From the NCBI GenBank assembly GCA_963738835.1, contig CAVTYH010000009.1, positions 121,533-185,532 on the forward strand: a stretch of DNA of 64,000 nucleotides, read 5' to 3'. Below are positions 19,143 to 64,000 of this stretch, piece by piece. Under the pieces are notes generated by a model. That model was not told the origin of the DNA and did no database searches. It was given only the letters and a program-made list of their open reading frames with translations. This stretch comes from Pirellulales bacterium. Lineage in GTDB: Bacteria; Planctomycetota; Planctomycetia; Pirellulales; JADZDJ01. Each line of letters starts with the position of its first letter. The stretch's first letter is position 1. A program made the position numbers and the translations under genes.

Positions 19143-19177
19143 GTCAGGAGTCAGAGATCAGAGGTCAGGAGTCAATT
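19143..19177 (-). repeat. Five 7-nt-periodic TGA-containing units abutting the coaE start
   Basis: The coding strand reads AATTGAC TCCTGAC CTCTGAT CTCTGAC TCCTGAC A-ATG. TCA on the plus strand falls at 19144, 19151, 19158, 19165 and 19172, exactly 7 nt apart. Confidence 0.7.
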
Positions 19178-33851: not shown

Positions 33852-33877
33852 TGTCCGACACAAACGTCCGACACAAA
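33852..33877 (+). repeat. Perfect 13-nt tandem duplication abutting the DUF1501 start codon
   Basis: GTCCGACACAAAC GTCCGACACAAAC followed directly by the ATG at 33879. Confidence 0.7.
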
Positions 33878-33878
33878 C

Positions 33879-35355
33879 ATGGATCAATGCACTCCACACC
33901 CCGAACTCCGAATTCCGCACTTCGAAACTGCTCAATCGCGCCGCGACTTCCTGACTCGTGCCGGCGGCGGATTCGGCGCCCTGGCGCTCTGGTCGTTGCT
34001 GGCTCGTGATGCCAAAGCGACGGAGTTGGCCGCGAAGGGACCGATTTCGCTTACTAATCCTCTGGCCGCAAAAGCGCCGCCAATGCCGGCCAAAGCCAAG
34101 TCGGTCATCTGGTGCTTTCTCGACGGCGGGCCGAGCCATCTCGACCTTTTCGATCCCAAACCGACGCTGACGAAACTTGCTGGCCAACCGCTGCCCGACA
34201 GCTTTCCTCGCCCCCTGACCGCCATGGGCAAGACGGCTTTTACGCCGCTGATGGCCAGCCAGCGGAAATTCAAACAGTACGGGCAATCGGGAATTTGGGT
34301 CAGCGATTGGTATCCCGAAATCGCCAGTTGTGTGGACGACATGGCCGTGGTTCGTTCGTGCTGGGCCGATGGTCTGACGCACGTGGGCAGTGTCTGTGAG
34401 ATGAACACGGGCAGCATTTTGATGGGACGACCATGCGTCGGCGCGTGGGTGCTCTACGGATTGGGCACTGCCTGCGACAACCTGCCCGGCTACGTCGTGC
34501 TGACCGACTATCAACAAGAACCGCCCGGCGGCAATCGCCAGTGGAGCACCGGCTTCATGCCCTCGACCTATCAGGGCACGAAATTCCGCGACGGCAAAAC
34601 GCCGATTCTGCACGTCGCCCCGCAAGACGGTTACTCCGACAAGCGGCAGCGCAGCAAAATCGATTTCATCCAGCAATTGAATCGCCAGCATCTGGAAGGA
34701 CGTGAGGGCGACAGCAATCTTGAAGCGCGAATCGCCTCGTACGAGTTGGCGTATCGAATGCAGGCCGCCGCGCCGGAAGCCGTGGACATCACGACGGAAA
34801 CCGCCGAAACACAGTCGCTGTACGGAATCGACGCCCAAGAAACCGCCGCCAATGGCCGCAACTGTTTGATGGCGCGCCGGCTGGTCAGAACGCGGCGTGC
34901 GCTTCGTCCAGCTTTACATGGGCTCGGGCAGCAAGTGGGATGCCCATACCGATGTGGAAGGCAATCACAGCCAGTACTGCAAAGAAACCGACAAGCCGGT
35001 CGCCGGGCTGCTGAAAGATTTGAAGCGTCGTGGTCTTTTGGACAGCACACTGGTGATCTGGGGCGGCGAATTCGGCCGCACCCCAATGAGCGAAAGCGGC
35101 ACCGGCCGCGACCACAATCCGTACGGCTTCACCATGTGGATGGCCGGCGGCGGCATCAAGCCGGGCACAGTGTACGGCGCGACCGACGAAATCGGCCTGT
35201 ACGCTGTGGAAAACAAAGCCCACATCCACGATGTCCACGCGACGCTTCTGGCGCTCTTGGGCCTCGACCACGAACAGCTGACCTTCCAGCACAACGGCCG
35301 CGACGAGCGCCTGACGATCACCAGCGGCACGGTGATCAAAGACATCATCGCCTGA
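33879..35355 (+). CDS. DUF1501 (sulfatase-fold-like) protein with Tat signal (apparent frameshift ~34887)
   Basis: Twin-arginine signal [18 protein letters not shown]. Motifs [16 protein letters not shown] and RRLV(E)[15 protein letters not shown]. The C-terminal ORF 34897-35355 has [17 protein letters not shown] and [12 protein letters not shown]. Confidence 0.85.
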
Positions 35356-45348: not shown

Positions 45349-45372
45349 GCAATTGGCGACGAGCTATCGAGT

Positions 45373-45394
45373 GTAGCGGCGGGGCTTGCCCCGC
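45373..45394 (+). repeat. GTAG-hairpin (REP-like) element
   Basis: GTGTAGCG-GCGGGGC-TT-GCCCCGC-G between the 855-aa gene stop and the ABC ATPase start. Confidence 0.5.
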
Positions 45395-54575: not shown

Positions 54576-54600
54576 ACGCCGAGCAAGCTCGGCCGCTACA
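54576..54600 (-). repeat. GTAG-hairpin (REP-like) element between convergent genes
   Basis: The minus strand reads GTGTAGCG-GCCGAGC-TT-GCTCGGC-G. It has the same frame as 45373-45394, with compensatory stem changes. Confidence 0.55.
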
Positions 54601-54608
54601 CTTTCTGG

Positions 54609-59070: not shown

Positions 59071-60626
59071 TTACGCCGATTCTTTCCGCTCGGCGGCCAA
59101 AATCGAGTCGATAACGCCTTGCATCGTATATTGCTCAGCTTCCGCGGCAGCCTGGAAGCCAAGTTCGGCGAGGGTTGCCGATGTTACCGGGCTGATACTG
59201 GCAATTTTCGTCTTTTGTAAGTCGTCGCCGAACATTTTCACGAGCGATCGGCCAATGGCCGAACTGGTTACGGTGACCCAATCGATGCGACCAGCCTTCA
59301 TGGCCGCGGCGATCTCTGGCTCGGGTTGTGCAACATTAGTGCTTTGATAGACGACGATTTGCTCGACTTGCCCACCGGCGGCTCGCAGCGTTTCGGCCAA
59401 CACTTCGCGGCCACGGCTTGCTCGGGCCAGAAGATAGCGTTTTCCTTTGGCATCGGTCGTGAGCAGTTCTGCAAGCGCTTCAGCACGGTAAACATCCGGG
59501 GGTTGACGATCGACTTTCAAATAGTAGCGAGCCAATTCTTCGGATGTGCCTGGCCCGATGGCAGCTAGATTGACGCCAGCGAGTCGCCGCAAATCGCCGC
59601 CAGTTTCAAGCAGGCGGTCAAGCAAAAACTGCACGCCATTTACGCTGGAAAACACCAGCCAGTTAAATTCTTCGATCCTCGTGAGTGCTGCATCGACCGC
59701 TCGCCAATCGGTCGGTGGAGAAATTTCGATCGCGGGTTGAATCAGACAATCGGCCCCCAATTCCGTCAACGGTTGATACAGCGATTCCGCGCGATCGATT
59801 GGCCGGGTGAGCACGATCCGCTTGCCAAACAGCGGACGACGGGTGAACCAAGATTTGGCTGTAGAAGCCGCCGTGACGTCGCCCAAAATGATTGCCACCG
59901 GTGGCCGTATTCGGGCCGCTTCCAAACTTTCGACCACCGTACCCAGTGTGCAGCGAATTATTGTCTGATCCGGCCACGAACAACGGCGAACAATCGCCAC
60001 CGGCGTGTCGCGAGACTTACCAGCGGAAATCAACGCCGCGCTCCATTCTTGCGCCGTCGTCACACCCATGTAAAAAACTAGCGTCCCGGGAAACTTCGCG
60101 AGTGCTGCGTAGTCCAAGGCCGGAGCATGCTTGGAATCGCCTTCGTGACCGGTGATGATTGCGACTGCTGATGCCACATCGCGCTGCGTAATCCACACAC
60201 CGGCGTAGCTGCCTGCCGCCAGCGCTGCGGTGATGCCGGGGACAATTTCGTAATCAATCTTTGCCGCTTCCAGGGCTTCAGCTTCTTCGGCCAATCGACC
60301 AAATACCGCCGGGTCGCCACCTTTCAGCCGCACCACGCGCTGGCCTTCGCGCGAAGCTCCAGTAATCGTTCGTTGATTTCGCGCTGATCCCAAATTCGAT
60401 CTCCCTGTTCACTTTTTCGCTGACCGTGCCGACCCAAACAAATCAAATTTGCGCCCGGCCTTGCATGTCGCAGAATGGCCGGATTCACCAAATAATCGTA
60501 CAGCACAGTGTCGGCCAGCCGCAGGCATTCGACCCCACGCCAGGTAATCAAGCCAGCATCGCCGGGGCCAGCGCCGACGAGAAAGACTTTGCCAGTCGAG
60601 TGACACGATTGTCGTTGTTTTGACAT
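59071..60626 (-). CDS. cobA: Uroporphyrinogen-III C-methyltransferase fused to uroporphyrinogen-III synthase (apparent frameshift ~60352)
   Basis: ORF 60324-60626 has KVFLVGAGPGDAGLIT. It continues as EL(A)REGQRVVRLKGGDPAVFGR, VPGITAA and VRRCSWPDQ. The HemD domain then follows from GKRIVLTRP. Confidence 0.8.
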
Positions 60627-60645
60627 CTTCCGATGTTTAGAATGG

Positions 60646-60670
60646 CTGTAGGTGAGGCATCACCCCACAG
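60646..60670 (+). repeat. GTAG-hairpin element in a divergent intergenic region
   Basis: CTGTAG-GTGA-GGCA-TCAC-CCCACAG. Shares the CTGTAGGT head with 57283-57306. Confidence 0.4.
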
Positions 60671-60715
60671 GAAGTCGTTTGCCGAAACAATCGTTGGCCG
60701 CGTACCCGCCCAACT

Positions 60716-62173
60716 ATGGCCGCCGATCAAAAAAATCCACTGCCTGTCGAAGCTGAAGCCATTTCGCCGGCCATGCGACGCCGGCTGCAAGAATGCTTCA
60801 ACCGCGGTGTGCAGAACACGCAAAGCGGCAATTTCGATTACGCCACCGAATTGCTTACTCAATGTGTGACCGGCGACCCGGGCAACTTGGTTTACACCCA
60901 GGGTTTCCTGGGTAATCTGCAGCGCAAGTATAACAATAACAAGAAGGGCAGCACACTGGCGAGCATCCGTTCCAGCGGCTCCAAGATGAGCATGATGAAC
61001 GCCAGCCGAAAGAAAGATTGGCCAGCGCTGATCAAGACGGGTTTGGAAGTGCTTAAAGTAAATCCGTGGGATGTCTCCACGTTGCTGCAAATCGCCCATG
61101 CGTGTGCGGAATTAGGCTATGTCGAGTGCCGACTGGTGTATCTCAAAGGCGCTCAGGACGCCGATCCAAAAAGTGTAGAAGTCCAGCGCAAGTGCGCCAA
61201 AGCATTGGAAAGCATTGGCGAATACAACCAGGCGATTTCCTGTTGGACTCGGGTCGATAGTCTCACGAAGGGAGGCAATGAAGAGGCGAAACGAGAAATC
61301 GCCAAGCTGCAAGTCGATCTCACGATGAACGCCGGCCCTGTGAAGCACGACGAAGAAGACGGCCAGGAATCCGAGGGGGGCAGCGCCGGAGCCAAAACTT
61401 CATCGTCTGGTCACGTGACCGTAGGACCGGCCAAAAAGTCGCCGACGCAGGAACTCGAAGTCCAGATTGCCGAGAACCCGGGTGAAGTTCTGGGCTATGC
61501 TCAGCTGGCCGAAAGCCACGCCAAAGTCGAGAAATGGAGTGAAGCGGAGAATGTGCTCAATCGAGGGCTGGAAGCCACGGGCGGCGACTTGCGGCTCCGC
61601 GAACAGTTGGAAGATATCCAACTTCGGCGAGCCAAACAGCACTCGCTCATTGCCGATAAGCGAGCCGCGGAATCGAAAACGCCCGAAGCCAACGAACAAG
61701 CCCAAAAAATGCGACGTGATCTGAGCCGGTTGGAGCTTGATATCTTCCGCAAACGGGTCGATCGATATCCAACCAACACGCACTGGAAGTATGAACTGGG
61801 CATCCGTCTGAAGATGACTGGCAATTTCAATGAAGCTATCAAAATGCTCCAGGACGCGCGGCAAGATCCGAAGCATCGCGGAACTGTAATGCTCGAGATC
61901 GGCGAGTGCTTCCAGCAAATCAAGCAATACAGCCTGGCGATGCAGCATTACAAAAAGGCAATTGAGGAAATTCCCGAACGCGACGAAGAACTGCGAAAAA
62001 AAGCCCTCTATCGGGCCGGCGTTTTGGCGATGGGTTTGAACGAACTGGAAGCGGCGGAGCAATACTTTTCGCAGTTGGCCGAGCGTGATTTTGGCTACCG
62101 CGATGTGTCCGACCGGCTAGACAAAATCGTTTCGCTCCGCGATAAAGGTGGTTCGGCTGAACCTGATTCCTGA
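60716..62173 (+). CDS. TPR-repeat protein, function unknown
   Basis: 485 aa with several TPR-like helical pairs (e.g. YSLAMQHYKKAIEEIP, LEAAEQYFSQLAE). Confidence 0.6.
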   Translation: MAADQKNPLPVEAEAISPAMRRRLQECFNRGVQNTQSGNFDYATELLTQCVTGDPGNLVYTQGFLGNLQRKYNNNKKGSTLASIRSSGSKMSMMNASRKKDWPALIKTGLEVLKVNPWDVSTLLQIAHACAELGYVECRLVYLKGAQDADPKSVEVQRKCAKALESIGEYNQAISCWTRVDSLTKGGNEEAKREIAKLQVDLTMNAGPVKHDEEDGQESEGGSAGAKTSSSGHVTVGPAKKSPTQELEVQIAENPGEVLGYAQLAESHAKVEKWSEAENVLNRGLEATGGDLRLREQLEDIQLRRAKQHSLIADKRAAESKTPEANEQAQKMRRDLSRLELDIFRKRVDRYPTNTHWKYELGIRLKMTGNFNEAIKMLQDARQDPKHRGTVMLEIGECFQQIKQYSLAMQHYKKAIEEIPERDEELRKKALYRAGVLAMGLNELEAAEQYFSQLAERDFGYRDVSDRLDKIVSLRDKGGSAEPDS

Positions 62174-62196
62174 ACCCTGAACCCTGAACCCTGCTC
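62163..62196 (+). repeat. Tandem heptamer CTGAACC run bridging the TPR stop codon and the rpsT start
   Basis: CTGATTC CTGAACC CTGAACC CTGAACC CTGCTC-ATG. CTGA falls at 62163, 62170, 62177 and 62184. The TPR stop TGA (62171-73) is one of the units. Confidence 0.75.
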
Positions 62197-62466
62197 ATGC
62201 CCAATATAGCCAGTGCCCGGAAGCGTCATCGCCAGAATCTGAAGCGTCGCGCCCGAAACCGTTCGGTGAAGAGCGAATTAAAGACTGAAATCCGCAAGGT
62301 GCATGAGTCTACGGCGGCGGGAAAAATGGACCAGGCGGAAGCGGAATTCCGTGTGGCCGTTACCAAGCTCGATCGGGCGGCCGCCAAGCGAATCATCCAT
62401 CCGAACCGTGCCGCACGGCTGAAATCGCGCTTATCGGCAAATATGAAAGCGGCGAAGAAGAAATAG
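62197..62466 (+). CDS. rpsT: 30S ribosomal protein S20
   Basis: MPNIASARKRHRQNLKRRARNRSVKSELKT..., 89 aa and basic. Confidence 0.9.
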   Translation: MPNIASARKRHRQNLKRRARNRSVKSELKTEIRKVHESTAAGKMDQAEAEFRVAVTKLDRAAAKRIIHPNRAARLKSRLSANMKAAKKK

Positions 62467-62493
62467 CCGACTTATCGTGCCGGGGAGATTGCT

Positions 62494-64000
62494 TTGGCTA
62501 TTTCCCGCTGTCTCCCGCTCTTCGGTCTGCAATCTTGGCATTGGTTTTGGCTGGCGACGGTCGGTGCGGGACTGCTCGTCATTCTCTTGTTGCGGCCTTA
62601 TATGCTGGGCCGCTGGTTGCTATGGCTGTTCGTTCGGTTGTTCTATCGAATGAAGGTTCACGGCTGCGAGAACATTCCGGTCAACGGTCCGGCGCTGTTG
62701 GTCTGCAACCATGTCAGCTACATCGATTGGGCGCTGATCTTGGTGGCGCAGCGCCGGTTCGTGCGGTTTGTGATTTACTCCGCCTGGACAAAAAAATTCT
62801 TCCTCCGGCATTTGCTGCGTTGGGAACGGGTAATTCCGATCGATGCCTCGTCAGGACCCAAGGCCATTCTGAAATCGCTGGCGCCGGCGGCGAAGCGCTC
62901 AATGAAGGCAGCCTGGTGTGCATCTTTGCCGAAGGCCGATTCACACGCACCGGCTTCATGCTGCCGTTTCACCGTGGACTGGAGCAGATTGTCAAGAATA
63001 CAAACGCGCCGATCATTCCGGTGTGCCTCAATGAATTGTGGGGCAGCATTTTCAGTTTCTACGGCGACCGCACCCTGTGGAAATGGCCGCGTATGCTGCC
63101 TTATCGAGTGAGCGTGGCTTTCGGAAAGCCGATGCTGCCCACGTCCACTGCAGCGGAGGTGCGGGAGGCCGTTCAGAAACTTTCGGCAGATTGTGCCATC
63201 GCTCGGTCCGATCAGTGCCGGCCGGTGCCTGCGGAGTTTGTGCATGCTGCGGCACGGCGGCCATTTCGGCCCTGTGTGATTGACGCGACCGATCCATCGA
63301 AACAGCCGCTGACATTGAGTTATTCGACGGTATTGGCACGTGCCATCTGTTTGGCTCGGCAATTGAAATCACGTTTGGATAACAGTCTGCTGGTGGGGAT
63401 TTGGCTGCCGCCGGGCATCGATGCCGTGACGGCACATTTGGCGGCCGCGTTCTGTGGCAAAGCGGTCGTGCATTTGGATCATTCTTCAGCCGATGCCGCG
63501 CGCTCGGTTATTGACGGGTGTCAATTGAAACAAGTACTGACGACCGAACACTTTTTGCGGCGGGAATCTCTACCCGATTTGCCTAGTGTCGAATTGATCG
63601 ACACTGCCGGCCTGCTTGCAACTTTGTCGTTCGGTCAACGATTTCTCGCACATGCAGCCGCCGTGACATTGCCGGGTTTCGTGATTGAACGTTGGCTGCT
63701 TGGCCTTCATCACCACGGCCTCGACGATTTAGCGGCCGTGGTTTTTACTCGTGGAACCACGGGCAAAGCGAAGGGAGTCATGCTGACGCATCGTAATCTT
63801 GCGGCCAGCGTGAGCTCGCTTGCGAAAACAGTTGACCCCTTGCCGCGCGATCGGCTACTTGGCGTGCTCCCGTTAAGCCAGAGCACGGGCTACGTCTGCA
63901 CTTTGTGGGCGCCACTGGCGATTGGCGCATCCGTTGTTTACGCCAAGACATCTCTCTTGCCCTCGGTGGGAGAGGGCCGGGGTGAGGGGGAATCGAAACC
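62494..64000 (+). CDS. Aas-like bifunctional acyltransferase / AMP-dependent acyl-ACP synthetase, 3' end off-window (apparent frameshift ~62884)
   Basis: PlsC motif LVCNHVSYIDW, then (after a -1 shift) LVCIFAEGRFTRTG and PIIPVCL. The AMP-binding motif FTRGTTGKAKGVMLTHRNL follows. The frame stays open to the window edge. Confidence 0.75.
63951..63990 (+). repeat. REP1 copy translated inside the Aas-like ORF
   Basis: TCTCTCTTGCCCTCGGTGGGAGAGGGCCGGGGTGAGGGGG encodes ...SLLPSVGEGRGEG... in the open frame. Confidence 0.55.

Follow-up and report, generated by a model that had tools for sequence, protein, structure and literature searches.

A CTGAACC heptamer array in front of rpsT in a soil planctomycete belongs to a dispersed population of heptad repeats and is a candidate unstructured leader

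In an uncultured soil planctomycete (Pirellulales bacterium), the gene of a TPR-repeat protein is directly followed by rpsT, the gene of ribosomal protein S20, and the stop codon of the first gene is embedded in a short tandem repeat that extends to the start codon of the second. This arrangement raises the question whether the repeat is a specific device of these two genes or a local example of something more general, and what it may do at the start of a ribosomal protein gene. The relevant features of the window, i.e. the whole stretch of 64,000 nucleotides that was analysed, are the following:

60716..62173, + strand: TPR-repeat protein gene, 485 aa, directly upstream of rpsT (ORF list; Pfam TPR families)
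62150..62156, + strand: single inverted unit GGTTCGG, the reverse complement of the variant unit CCGAACC, directly 5' of the array (sequence)
62157..62193, + strand: heptanucleotide tandem array, consensus CTGAACC (GGGTTCA on the complement), 5.4 copies (Tandem Repeats Finder, sequence, shuffle control)
62171..62173, + strand: TGA stop codon of the TPR gene, within a repeat unit (ORF 60716..62173)
62178..62187, + strand: TGA 62178-62180 and TGA 62185-62187, which close the remaining two frames ahead of the ATG (sequence)
62191..62196, + strand: degenerate terminal 6-nt unit CTGCTC, which abuts the rpsT ATG and sets it in heptad register 6 (sequence)
62197..62466, + strand: rpsT, ribosomal protein S20, 89 aa (ORF list; Pfam Ribosomal_S20p, E 3.6e-26)
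19143..19177, - strand: second array of the same class, with CTGACTC/CTGACCT/CTGATCT units in the - strand reading, abutting an ATG (Tandem Repeats Finder, sequence)

On the + strand the order is CTGAAC (62157-62162), CTGATTC (62163-62169), three CTGAACC units (62170-62190) and CTGCTC (62191-62196), followed by the ATG at 62197, and Tandem Repeats Finder (TRF) reports a period of 7, 5.4 copies, 87% matches and a score of 53 for 62157-62193, so that both agree on a real heptamer array. The preliminary description had the units from 62163 onwards right and had overlooked the extra 6-nt unit at 62157-62162. Its other details hold: the TPR gene stops within what it counted as the second unit (62171-62173 in the ORF list), two more TGAs follow in the other frames at 62178 and 62185, and the array as delimited by TRF ends at 62193, 3 nt ahead of the ATG, the gap being filled by the degenerate sixth unit. 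As had been claimed, it is truly a short tandem repeat, and no other heptad array of the window is as regular, since the other period-7 arrays score 34 (19143-19174) and 31 (33901-33926, within a coding region). The tandem arrangement is the non-random part of it, because the two-unit 14-mer with at most two mismatches is found 3 times in the window at a shuffle mean of 0.38 (0 of 100 shuffles reach 3), whereas the single heptamer is not enriched there (11 matches versus 7.2, with 10 of 100 shuffles reaching 11). The array fills the entire 23-nt spacer between the two genes, and no SD-like motif is present in the rpsT leader sequence. A scan of 60300-62700 for sigma-70-type promoters gave 0 sites where 0.9 were expected, for a consensus that may not fit a planctomycete. 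At the locus no Rfam family reaches its gathering score, the best E-values of 0.86 and 0.94 belonging to archaeal snoRNA models, and a covariance-model match to a known structured RNA, ribosomal protein leaders included, is thus lacking; the predicted fold of the locus is no better than that of shuffles, with the array unpaired in the centroid.

The gene order is widely kept, as the TPR gene stands on the same strand directly upstream of rpsT in 26 of 30 related loci and the rpsT start aligns with an ATGCC start in 30 of 30 relatives. A CYGAACC array is found by TRF at the rpsT leader in 5 of the 11 family genomes, with 5.4 copies here, 4.1 in G002 and 2.6 each in G003, G006 and G008. The leaders of G001, which belongs to the same genus, and of G005 contain no array by sequence and TRF, and G010 possesses an octamer hairpin instead (TRF), the like of which is recognised in G009 and G004 by eye and by folding, their octamer runs being below the TRF threshold. 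The copy number, which the preliminary description had proposed to compare, thus differs among relatives at the orthologous leader, as a slippage-prone repeat predicts. With 4.1 copies, 2.6 copies, no copy or an octamer hairpin in relatives, the leader shows a fast turnover of the array, and a coupling of stop and start is not conserved; as G001 has no array before rpsT, the array is dispensable in that genome. A lack of conservation in relatives had been named in advance as evidence against the preliminary reading, and in the closest relative, G001, this is what is seen; a by-eye comparison with G001 found arrays retained in only 1 of 6 syntenic spacers. At the same time, three genera with S20 proteins of only 76-82% identity, and with a spacer that otherwise cannot be aligned, have the CYGAACC unit in this leader. 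Contigs match with full identity only over 61754-61904, and one soil run contains 0.12 of the sampled words, with no RNA run among the matches listed. Short contigs over 62158-62193 continue into unlike flanks and are thus from other loci or organisms, and exact-pattern scans of metagenome contigs, either for the flanks with a variable gap or for the array-ATG junction, returned 0 records each.

The array before rpsT belongs to a population of 7-8 nt repeats that are dispersed over intergenic spacers. The heptad motif is real at rpsT but no special feature of this gene, being one of hundreds of arrays in the genome. Period 7 is the commonest TRF period of the genome (569 of 2930 rows), exact 4-mers that recur three times at fixed spacing number 2890 at period 7 versus 288-1364 at periods 5, 6, 8, 9 and 10, and arrays of (CTGANNN)x3 or longer number 43, versus 3 in the control at period 6, 0 in that at period 8 and 4 in the reversed one. 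The features of a dispersed heptamer repeat (many copies, over-representation relative to other periods, location outside genes) are thus present, with the remark that 204 of 393 arrays overlap ORFs of a crude rule under which ORFs cover 86% of the genome. There are at least 195 canonical unit classes in this one genome. Most unit families, for example the complements of CTGACCA, CGGACAA and AATGACG, have no G3 tract and follow the same positional rules, and single arrays mix CTGA units with stop-free ones, for example CGGACAA and CCGAACC. Beyond this genome, such arrays are common to many but not all Planctomycetota, the CTGA-core heptads being patchily distributed with 10 or more matches in 48 of 251 sampled genomes.

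Mobile or palindromic elements do not account for this population. A miniature transposon (MITE) with conserved internal sequence is ruled out, as the loops between the arms do not align between copies in the four array families compared, and a REP/BIME-type palindrome is ruled out as well, because the repeat is a direct one without partner here and paired arrays have loops that vary from copy to copy. Separately from these arrays, the genome does contain a true REP-like element. Inverted arrays stand on both sides of each 23S rRNA intervening-sequence protein gene, but as the genome has only 2 such genes, array-bounded cassettes of this kind cannot account for hundreds of arrays.

The arrays have a clear orientation. 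On the sense strand of the gene that follows, they are rich in C and poor in G, and in many cases 0-8 nt separate them from its ATG. With starts defined by a crude ORF rule and not by a gene caller, which applies to all orientation, distance and folding controls, the first ATG in -3..+30 nt begins an ORF of 80 aa or more at 92 of 373 period-7 arrays in the C-rich sense and at 37 of 373 in the G-rich sense, versus 9.9% of random positions, so that C-rich-strand arrays are found just before starts at 2.5 times chance (the ATG-only rule was used; when any start codon is allowed, 38.5% of random positions pass). Conversely, of 373 arrays, 36 stand at most 15 nt behind a stop when read in the G-rich sense and 20 when read in the C-rich sense, compared to 1.2% of random positions, and among octamer arrays the corresponding numbers are 20 of 165 and 1 of 165. 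There are 218 arrays with at least three C[TCG]GANNN units in tandem, and at 66 of them an ATG in -3..+30 nt opens such an ORF, most commonly at a distance of 6 nt; an SD-like motif is found at 4 of these 66 starts. The ATG stands in heptad register 6 at 18 of 53 close arrays, where about 7.6 are expected, and the CTGYYC-ATG ending with its register, as seen at rpsT, recurs genome-wide. Closure of all three frames is not a general requirement, since only 20 of the 66 start-abutting arrays achieve it, and the class overall is not a start-codon device, as only about a quarter to a third of the arrays abut starts and many lie after stops or elsewhere.

Short tandemly repeated repetitive (STRR) heptamers of heterocystous cyanobacteria are likewise tandem, dispersed and intergenic, with other units and in another phylum. 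Related systems have been described in other bacteria as well. Rehm et al. (2015, PLoS One, PMC4692102) reported G-rich heptamers, GGGAATC in Xanthomonas and GGGGA[C/T]T in Nostoc, which are dispersed in hundreds of copies, over-represented outside genes and typically about four units long. Their G-rich strand is the antisense one in the 50 bp that precede an ORF and the sense one in the 50 bp that follow a stop. Arrays after a stop sometimes overlap it, 70-75 convergent inverted pairs occur per genome, the length differs between related genomes, and no particular class of neighbour genes stands out (PMC4692102). The arrays of this genome share the 7-nt unit with G3 on one strand, (GGGTTCA)n being the complement of the rpsT array, and also the dispersal, the positional rules (C-rich before starts, G-rich after stops, genome-wide) and the inverted pairs, but they differ by the phylum, by the unit and by the 195 canonical classes, most of which have no G3. 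MacGregor (2015, Front Microbiol, PMC4679880) described TAACTGA direct repeats in marine Beggiatoaceae and some Cyanobacteria and Bacteroidetes that stand in forward orientation within few nt of a start codon, provide stops in three frames, rarely leave an SD in between, overlap the upstream stop in 13 cases and precede, among others, ribosomal protein genes; binding of S1, Csp or CsrA was proposed. The array at rpsT resembles these in its CTGA core, forward orientation, few nt to the start, three-frame stops and lack of an SD, but its unit is CTGAACC, and many related units coexist and mix here, whereas heptamers related to TAACTGA were rarely repeated (PMC4679880); one TAACTGA-type array was seen in this genome. 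Planctomycetes do not occur in that article's text (0 occurrences in PMC4679880). According to Mrazek et al. (2007), as cited in PMC4679880 and PMC4692102, heptanucleotides are the most abundant class in repeat-rich genomes, and polymerase slippage was proposed as the origin of long simple sequence repeats; as far as these citations go, this was a survey, and positional rules or Planctomycetota do not appear in them. The uspA2 gene of Moraxella catarrhalis has phase-variable AGAT repeats in its 5' untranslated region (as cited in PMC4679880), and there, too, copy number differs, in that case across strains and with the repeat between promoter and start codon, but the gene encodes a pathogen surface protein, whereas here a housekeeping gene and a genome-wide array population are concerned. 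One survey lists 29 satellites in Rhodopirellula baltica, giving no detail. The same positional rules are thus already known from Xanthomonas and Nostoc (Rehm 2015) and Beggiatoaceae (MacGregor 2015), and an account of heptamer tandem arrays in Planctomycetota was not found in the article texts covered.

What the array may contribute at a start is indicated by folding. The region from -35 to +25 has an MFE of -5.7 kcal/mol at 53 array-abutted starts versus -12.3 at 400 controls (Mann-Whitney p 8e-19), and the unpaired probability around the start is 0.62 versus 0.48, which may be a trivial result of G-poor low-complexity sequence. The genome is poor in SD sites, with SD-like tetramers at -20..-4 at 389 of 1590 ORF starts, although the 16S 3' end is canonical. 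Direct pairing of the arrays with 16S rRNA was rejected, because three-unit arrays are equalled or surpassed in pairing by 147 to 200 of 200 shuffles, be it with the whole 16S rRNA or with its 3' terminal 30 nt.

The best reading, and on balance a probable one, is that the array was made by slippage and serves as an unstructured leader without SD. Arrays would arise and change their copy number through replication slippage and would be retained at sites at which their sequence does no harm or is of use. Over the 40 nt that lead up to a start, a C-rich sense strand would provide a leader with neither structure nor SD-like motifs nor start codons, and CTGA units would additionally close all three reading frames. 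At rpsT, the array would be the translation-initiation region, because it makes up the whole spacer, and in that case S20 synthesis must start without SD, either through ribosomes that load directly onto the open leader or through those that have finished the TPR gene a moment before, at its stop 23 nt upstream. The position of this stop inside the array probably has its own history. In other genera of the family the TPR gene ends with ...K[GE]-TGA-TTCG, and in this genome and G001 the protein is 8-9 aa longer, so that the stop of the other three family genera (after ...KG or ...KE) is probably unused in this genus, and translation would continue for 8 codons to the first in-frame TGA, which is supplied by the array. 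This is uncertain, as an acidic, extended tail is present in several relatives farther away as well.

It is possible, if somewhat doubtful, that the arrays are only neutral or selfish by-products of slippage that survive where they do no harm and have no effect on S20 or TPR expression, the orientation rule then reflecting what is tolerated beside starts and stops. The fast turnover (no rpsT array in G001 and G005, the one retained array among six syntenic spacers), the at least 195 unit classes in one genome and the patchy spread over order and phylum would suit such an origin, and Rehm et al., too, could assign no role in regulation to the repeats they describe, which were distributed at random among gene classes (PMC4692102). 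It explains less well why CYGAACC recurs at the same leader in three genera whose spacers are otherwise unalignable, why the ATG prefers one register, and why start regions are so strongly open. A loss of mismatch repair as the cause is rejected, since MutL scores above the cut-off in 39 of 41 relatives, array-rich and array-free alike (the two others are genomes of 72% and 78% completeness), and thus does not sort the array-bearing genomes, which also speaks against a purely neutral origin.

A role as one half of an intercistronic hairpin, with a G-rich arm after the TPR stop and a C-rich arm before the rpsT ATG, is unlikely at this locus. Such a hairpin might be an mRNA stabiliser, a processing site, a partial terminator or a translational occluder, and its 5' arm would here have decayed to one unit. 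Genome-wide, inverted partners are frequent (within 200 nt at 152 of 382 period-7 and 61 of 169 period-8 arrays), lie upstream of the C-rich array in 57 of 218 cases and downstream in 1 of 218, and among 48 adjacent pairs the G-rich arm is 5' in 38, the order is opposite in 6 and mixed in 4; as the G-rich partner is 5' of the C-rich array on either strand read, the pair can form a long hairpin. The TPR-rpsT spacers of G002 (-58.1 kcal/mol, z -5.8), G009 (z -4.3) and G010 (z -5.4) indeed fold into long hairpins of inverted arrays, each equalled by 0 of 200 shuffles, and the frequency of G-rich-sense arrays directly after stops fits a 5' arm in that place. The GGTTCGG that persists at 62150-62156, now translated within the TPR tail, may be a leftover of the G-rich arm known from sister genera. 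It pairs with the array in the predicted fold, but this fold is no better than shuffles (z -0.08), a partner array is absent both here and in the genus g3, 43 of 53 start-abutting arrays of the rpsT type are solo, and the three perfect CTGAACC units appear undecayed.

Distinctly unlikely as a whole is a more elaborate view, by which the C-rich heptad arrays of SD-poor Planctomycetota are modular, register-locked leaders that keep the start single-stranded. They would offer sites spaced by 7 nt to a single-strand RNA-binding protein (S1 or a cold-shock-domain protein) and would stop ribosomes that arrive in any frame; an upstream inverted G-rich array would form a switchable hairpin that masks the start, and slippage would tune the output of hundreds of genes, including that of a ribosomal protein.

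A dedicated translational coupling, in which ribosomes that terminate on the TPR gene in any frame stop before the rpsT ATG and reinitiate there, is very unlikely. The stop 23 nt before the ATG, the TGAs in three frames, the lack of an SD and the same-strand adjacency of both genes in most loci would all suit it. In relatives, however, the spacer ranges from 21 to 192 nt (leaving out rows L002, L004, L011 and L025, which are script artefacts) and the TPR stop usually lies ahead of any array, only 3 of 53 start-abutting arrays of the genome contain an upstream ORF stop, and stop-free units such as CGGACAA and CCGAACC are freely mixed with CTGA units. The stop within the repeat, which the preliminary description had put at the centre, is thus not upheld as a specific device. 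It is highly improbable that the array acts at the DNA level as a (GGGTTCA)n G-quadruplex on the template strand that affects transcription or replication. A quadruplex has been proposed for the Xanthomonas GGGAATC repeats (PMC4692102), successive G3 tracts on the opposite strand of the array are separated by 4 nt, and, as in the repeats of Rehm et al., this G-rich strand is the antisense one in the 50 bp preceding an ORF (PMC4692102), but there are three G3 tracts at rpsT where four are needed, and since most unit families of the genome follow the same positional rules without G3, quadruplex formation cannot be the common denominator. A phase-variation switch (contingency locus), in which copy-number changes toggle TPR or S20 expression, can practically be dismissed, because, even though a short tandem repeat of unequal copy number among relatives stands beside a start codon, a change by +/-7 nt leaves the rpsT frame intact and the TPR gene still ends within the array as each unit carries a TGA, the downstream gene encodes a housekeeping ribosomal protein, and such arrays stand before hundreds of unrelated genes.

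If the arrays are only tolerated products of slippage, their value lies in the annotation and assembly of planctomycete MAGs, as they point to intergenic spacers and, in many cases, to the correct start codon, and are likely sites of assembly errors. If they do function as leaders, they would be a widespread and sequence-flexible alternative to the SD in a phylum in which most genes have none, and slippage of their copy number would be a simple route to retuned translation. Three measurable features are at hand for this: the open start regions, the preferred register of the ATG, and the near-absolute rule that the G-rich arm stands 5' of the C-rich one.

The repeat before rpsT, the gene of ribosomal protein S20, and the TPR gene directly upstream of it are arranged as follows in the window:

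60716..62173 (+): TPR-repeat ORF, 485 aa (ORF list, Pfam)
62157-62199 (+): units CTGAAC, CTGATTC, CTGAACC, CTGAACC, CTGAACC and CTGCTC, then ATG (sequence)
62197..62466 (+): ribosomal protein S20 ORF (Pfam, E 3.6e-26)

The array is real and non-random and belongs to an already described class of repeats, one without an assigned function. The preliminary description had claimed a heptamer array at this place, and it is borne out by the sequence, by Tandem Repeats Finder (TRF; period-7 array 62157-62193, 5.4 copies, score 53), and by a shuffle control in which two tandem CTGAACC units with up to 2 mismatches are found 3 times in the window vs 0.38 times in shuffles, none of 100 shuffles reaching 3. 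The single heptamer is not enriched in the window (11 vs 7.2 in shuffles). Also the claim that this is the most regular heptad array agrees with TRF, which ranks it best among the period-7 arrays of the window. The start-proximal units are as had been described, but an extra unit at 62157-62162 had been overlooked. The TPR ORF indeed stops within a repeat unit, at the TGA 62171-62173, and the TGAs said to shut the remaining two frames are present at 62178 and 62185. The fold of the rpsT leader is unremarkable (z -0.08), with the array unpaired in the centroid. No Rfam family matches at the locus, and a search of 60300-62700 for sigma-70-like promoters was negative, though such a scan says little for Planctomycetota. 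The anti-Shine-Dalgarno sequence at the 16S rRNA 3' end is the usual one; a pairing of the arrays with 16S rRNA was considered and is rejected, as they pair less well than most shuffles and have no complementarity.

Two described repeat types are comparable. Rehm et al. 2015 (PMC4692102) reported on the heptamers GGGAATC of Xanthomonas and GGGGA[C/T]T of Nostoc, which are over-represented outside genes and favour four units. Their G-rich strand is antisense where they precede an ORF by up to 50 bp, and sense where they follow a stop codon by up to 50 bp or even overlap it. They form 70 and 75 convergent inverted pairs, respectively, are mostly transcribed and differ in length between species, and the study identified no function for them (PMC4692102). 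The TAACTGA repeats of MacGregor 2015 (PMC4679880) lie mostly few nucleotides before start codons, have stops in all frames, overlap the upstream stop in 13 cases and are seldom accompanied by a Shine-Dalgarno (SD) motif; their targets include ribosomal protein genes, and S1, Csp or CsrA have been proposed as binders (PMC4679880). The rpsT array obeys the positional rules of both types, with a different unit. The string 'planctomyc' has 0 occurrences in either article, and literature searches brought up no specific account of repeats of this kind in Planctomycetes.

The array is one member of a large population. In the genome of 5.97 Mb (12 contigs, the window falling on contig 9), TRF gives 2930 rows. 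The most frequent period is 7 (569 rows); periods 9, 8 and 6 have 463, 332 and 168. The 569 rows represent 195 different canonical unit classes, such as AATGACG (57), ACCACGG (37), AACGGAC (31), CTGAACC (29) and CTGACCA (21). Exact 4-mers occurring three times at fixed spacing number 2890 at period 7 vs 288-1364 at other periods, and there are 43 arrays of at least three CTGANNN units vs 3, 0 and 4 in the period-6, period-8 and reversed controls; with the looser C[TCG]GANNN, it is 218 vs 34-56. At seven or more loci of the genome (C1:780338, C1:801649, C1:1116113, C2:188250, C9:213973, C10:9476, C10:65313), GACCACG (or its complement) forms arrays of one and the same length, 59 nt with exactly 8.4 copies; these probably belong to a multi-copy mobile element and not to the independent arrays.

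For the position of arrays relative to genes, greedy ORFs of at least 100 aa were used without a gene caller, and starts had to pass a stricter test, by which the first ATG within -3..+30 nt of the array must begin an ORF of 80 aa or more. Overlap removal left 382 period-7 arrays with 2.8 copies or more, of which 373 could be oriented, 9 ties being dropped. Arrays adjoin a start in about a quarter of cases and in the C-rich sense only, because 92 of the 373 pass in this sense vs 37 in the G-rich sense, with 1988 of 20000 random positions (9.9%) passing. An enrichment is seen behind stops as well, stronger in the G-rich sense: up to 15 nt after a stop are 36/373 period-7 arrays in the G-rich vs 20/373 in the C-rich sense, and 20/165 vs 1/165 period-8 arrays (random positions 1.2%). 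A qualifying ATG follows 66 of the 218 CTGA-type arrays, most often at a distance of 6 nt (11 cases). In 20 of these 66, and in 18 of the 53 at a distance of up to 13 nt (about 7.6 expected), the ATG is in heptad register 6, usually reached via a degenerate final unit (CTGCTC, CTGTTC, CTGCCC), just as at rpsT. An SD-like motif accompanies 4 of the 66, and in only 20 of them are all three frames shut; the stop of the upstream ORF lies within the array in only 3 of the 53. Crude ORF starts in general have an SD-like tetramer at -20..-4 in only 389 of 1590 cases vs 118 at -60..-44. The region -35..+25 folds with a mean of -5.7 kcal/mol at the 53 array-abutted starts vs -12.3 kcal/mol at 400 control starts (Mann-Whitney p 8e-19), and the unpaired probability near the start is 0.62 vs 0.48.

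Arrays are often paired in inverted orientation. An inverted two-unit partner within 200 nt is found for 152 of the 382 period-7 and 61 of the 169 period-8 arrays, a further direct copy for only 19 and 2, respectively. Among 48 adjacent array pairs, with a median loop of 48 nt, the G-rich arm is the 5' one and the C-rich arm the 3' one in 38, irrespective of strand; the order is reversed in 6, and 4 are mixed. The partner of the 218 CTGA-type arrays is upstream in 57 cases and downstream in 1, and 10 of the 53 start-abutting ones have a partner; like most of these, the rpsT array is solo. Loop sequences compared between copies within array families show no conservation.

At the rpsT locus, turnover of the array is fast. 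S20 is present in all 41 genomes searched (the genome under study and 40 relatives of the order), and a same-strand TPR gene is directly upstream in 26 of 30 loci, one of the other four having just 153 nt of upstream sequence. TRF was applied to the 160 nt before the rpsT ATG.

Arrays before rpsT in the genome under study (G000), its same-genus relative G001, other genomes of the family (G002-G006, G008-G010) and other families
G000: CTGAACC, 5.4 copies (TRF)
G002: C[CT]GAACC, 4.1 copies, the last one 7 nt from the ATG, with an inverted array of GGGTTCA directly behind the TPR stop (TRF)
G003, G006, G008: 2.6 copies, 15-16 nt before the ATG (TRF)
G010: inverted octamer arrays in place of heptamers (TRF)
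G009, G004: similar octamer arms (by eye; below TRF threshold)
G001, G005: array absent (TRF)
19 loci of other families: nothing near the ATG but two weak duplications of heptamers, scoring 27 and 29 (TRF)

The expectation that the region recurs in relatives with varying repeat number thus holds for several family genomes (4.1 and 2.6 copies) but not for the same-genus G001. In metagenome contigs, exact patterns of the flanking sequence with a variable gap and of the array-ATG junction matched 0 records, and reads yielded nothing on polymorphism in copy number or on expression. The TPR-rpsT spacer ranges from 21 to 192 nt among the usable rows of relatives (L002, L004, L011 and L025, script artefacts, were left out), and it folds into a long hairpin in G002 (z -5.8, -58.1 kcal/mol), G009 (z -4.3) and G010 (z -5.4). 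In the family's other genera the TPR protein ends with K[GE], followed by TGA and TTCG, and the reading frame is 8-9 codons longer in G000 and G001. Because these two read further, the stop inside the repeat looks secondary, as if captured by the array, although acidic extended tails in some distant relatives leave doubt. The motif AAAGGGTGATTCG, a stop codon plus four bases, is kept at the end of the TPR gene in several families among the loci L001-L030; together with the gene adjacency (26/30), this suggests that an operon, or else a signal at the 3' end, has been conserved.

When 400 kb of G001 were compared with contig 9 (about 75% identity over 100 kb), six syntenic spacers, which account for 12 of the 19 arrays present there and were compared by eye, had kept the array in one case, an AATGACG-type hairpin, and lacked it in the other five, including rpsT. 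All 11 family genomes contain three tandem CTGANNN units (3 to 104 overlapping matches), as do 19 of the 30 genomes from the order's other families; 11 genomes have none, and the reversed-pattern control gives mostly 0-5 in the order. In the phylum sample, 133 of 251 genomes have a match and 48 at least 10 (counted from the table), with a maximum of 1050. High loads of CTGA-core heptads are found in three other Planctomycetota genomes, G025 (388 overlapping matches, the order's highest), G133 (1050) and G134 (355). G025 prefers its own unit CTGAC[CG]G and has, by eye and among the matches listed, about 7 minus-strand arrays with a plus-strand array 60-170 nt on and 0 in reverse order. The mismatch-repair protein MutL is above the cut-off in 39 of 41 relatives, array-rich and array-free alike.

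Several other elements were seen. A REP-like extragenic palindrome distinct from the heptamers has the form of a GC-rich hairpin, CGCCGGGC..GCCCGG in type, then GCCGCTACAC; its 10-mer occurs 138 times in the genome vs about 18 expected, frequently as one of an inverted pair and frequently on the upstream side of a heptamer array, and twice in the window (45371-45380, -; 54592-54601, +), which 0 of 100 shuffles reach. Both PF05635 genes of the genome (23S rRNA intervening-sequence protein family; C9:63699-64244 and C5:483150-483626, outside the window) are bordered by inverted arrays, octamers TGAACGGG / TTCACCCC at one and heptamers AATGACC / CATTGGT at the other, and the C9 cassette is absent from the syntenic site of G001. 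A long-hairpin family (C9:70345-70485 and seven similar loci; about 140 nt, loops of 66-79 nt) has arms that blend AATGACG units, the palindrome TTCGAA and CCAAATT-type units, and the C9:70345 copy is retained at the syntenic site of G001. A perfect 13-nt direct repeat, GTCCGACACAAAC twice (33853-33878, +), ends 1 nt before an ATG (33880); the ORF that begins there has a twin-arginine-type signal and, in its first codons, a weak period-7 array (33901-33926). The gene after rpsT (62494-63998, +) is spread over two overlapping frames. It encodes an acyltransferase (PF01553) to which an adenylate-forming domain seems to be joined; one frame has the first acyltransferase motifs and another the FAEGR motif, with the shift near 62870-62880 by a short A-run. 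The cause may be either a genuine frameshift or an indel in the assembly.

As to origin, we infer that the arrays arise by slippage. A specific coupling of S20 to TPR termination at the rpsT locus is possible, as a feature of this genome without conservation, and the array itself would serve as an SD-less open leader for S20.
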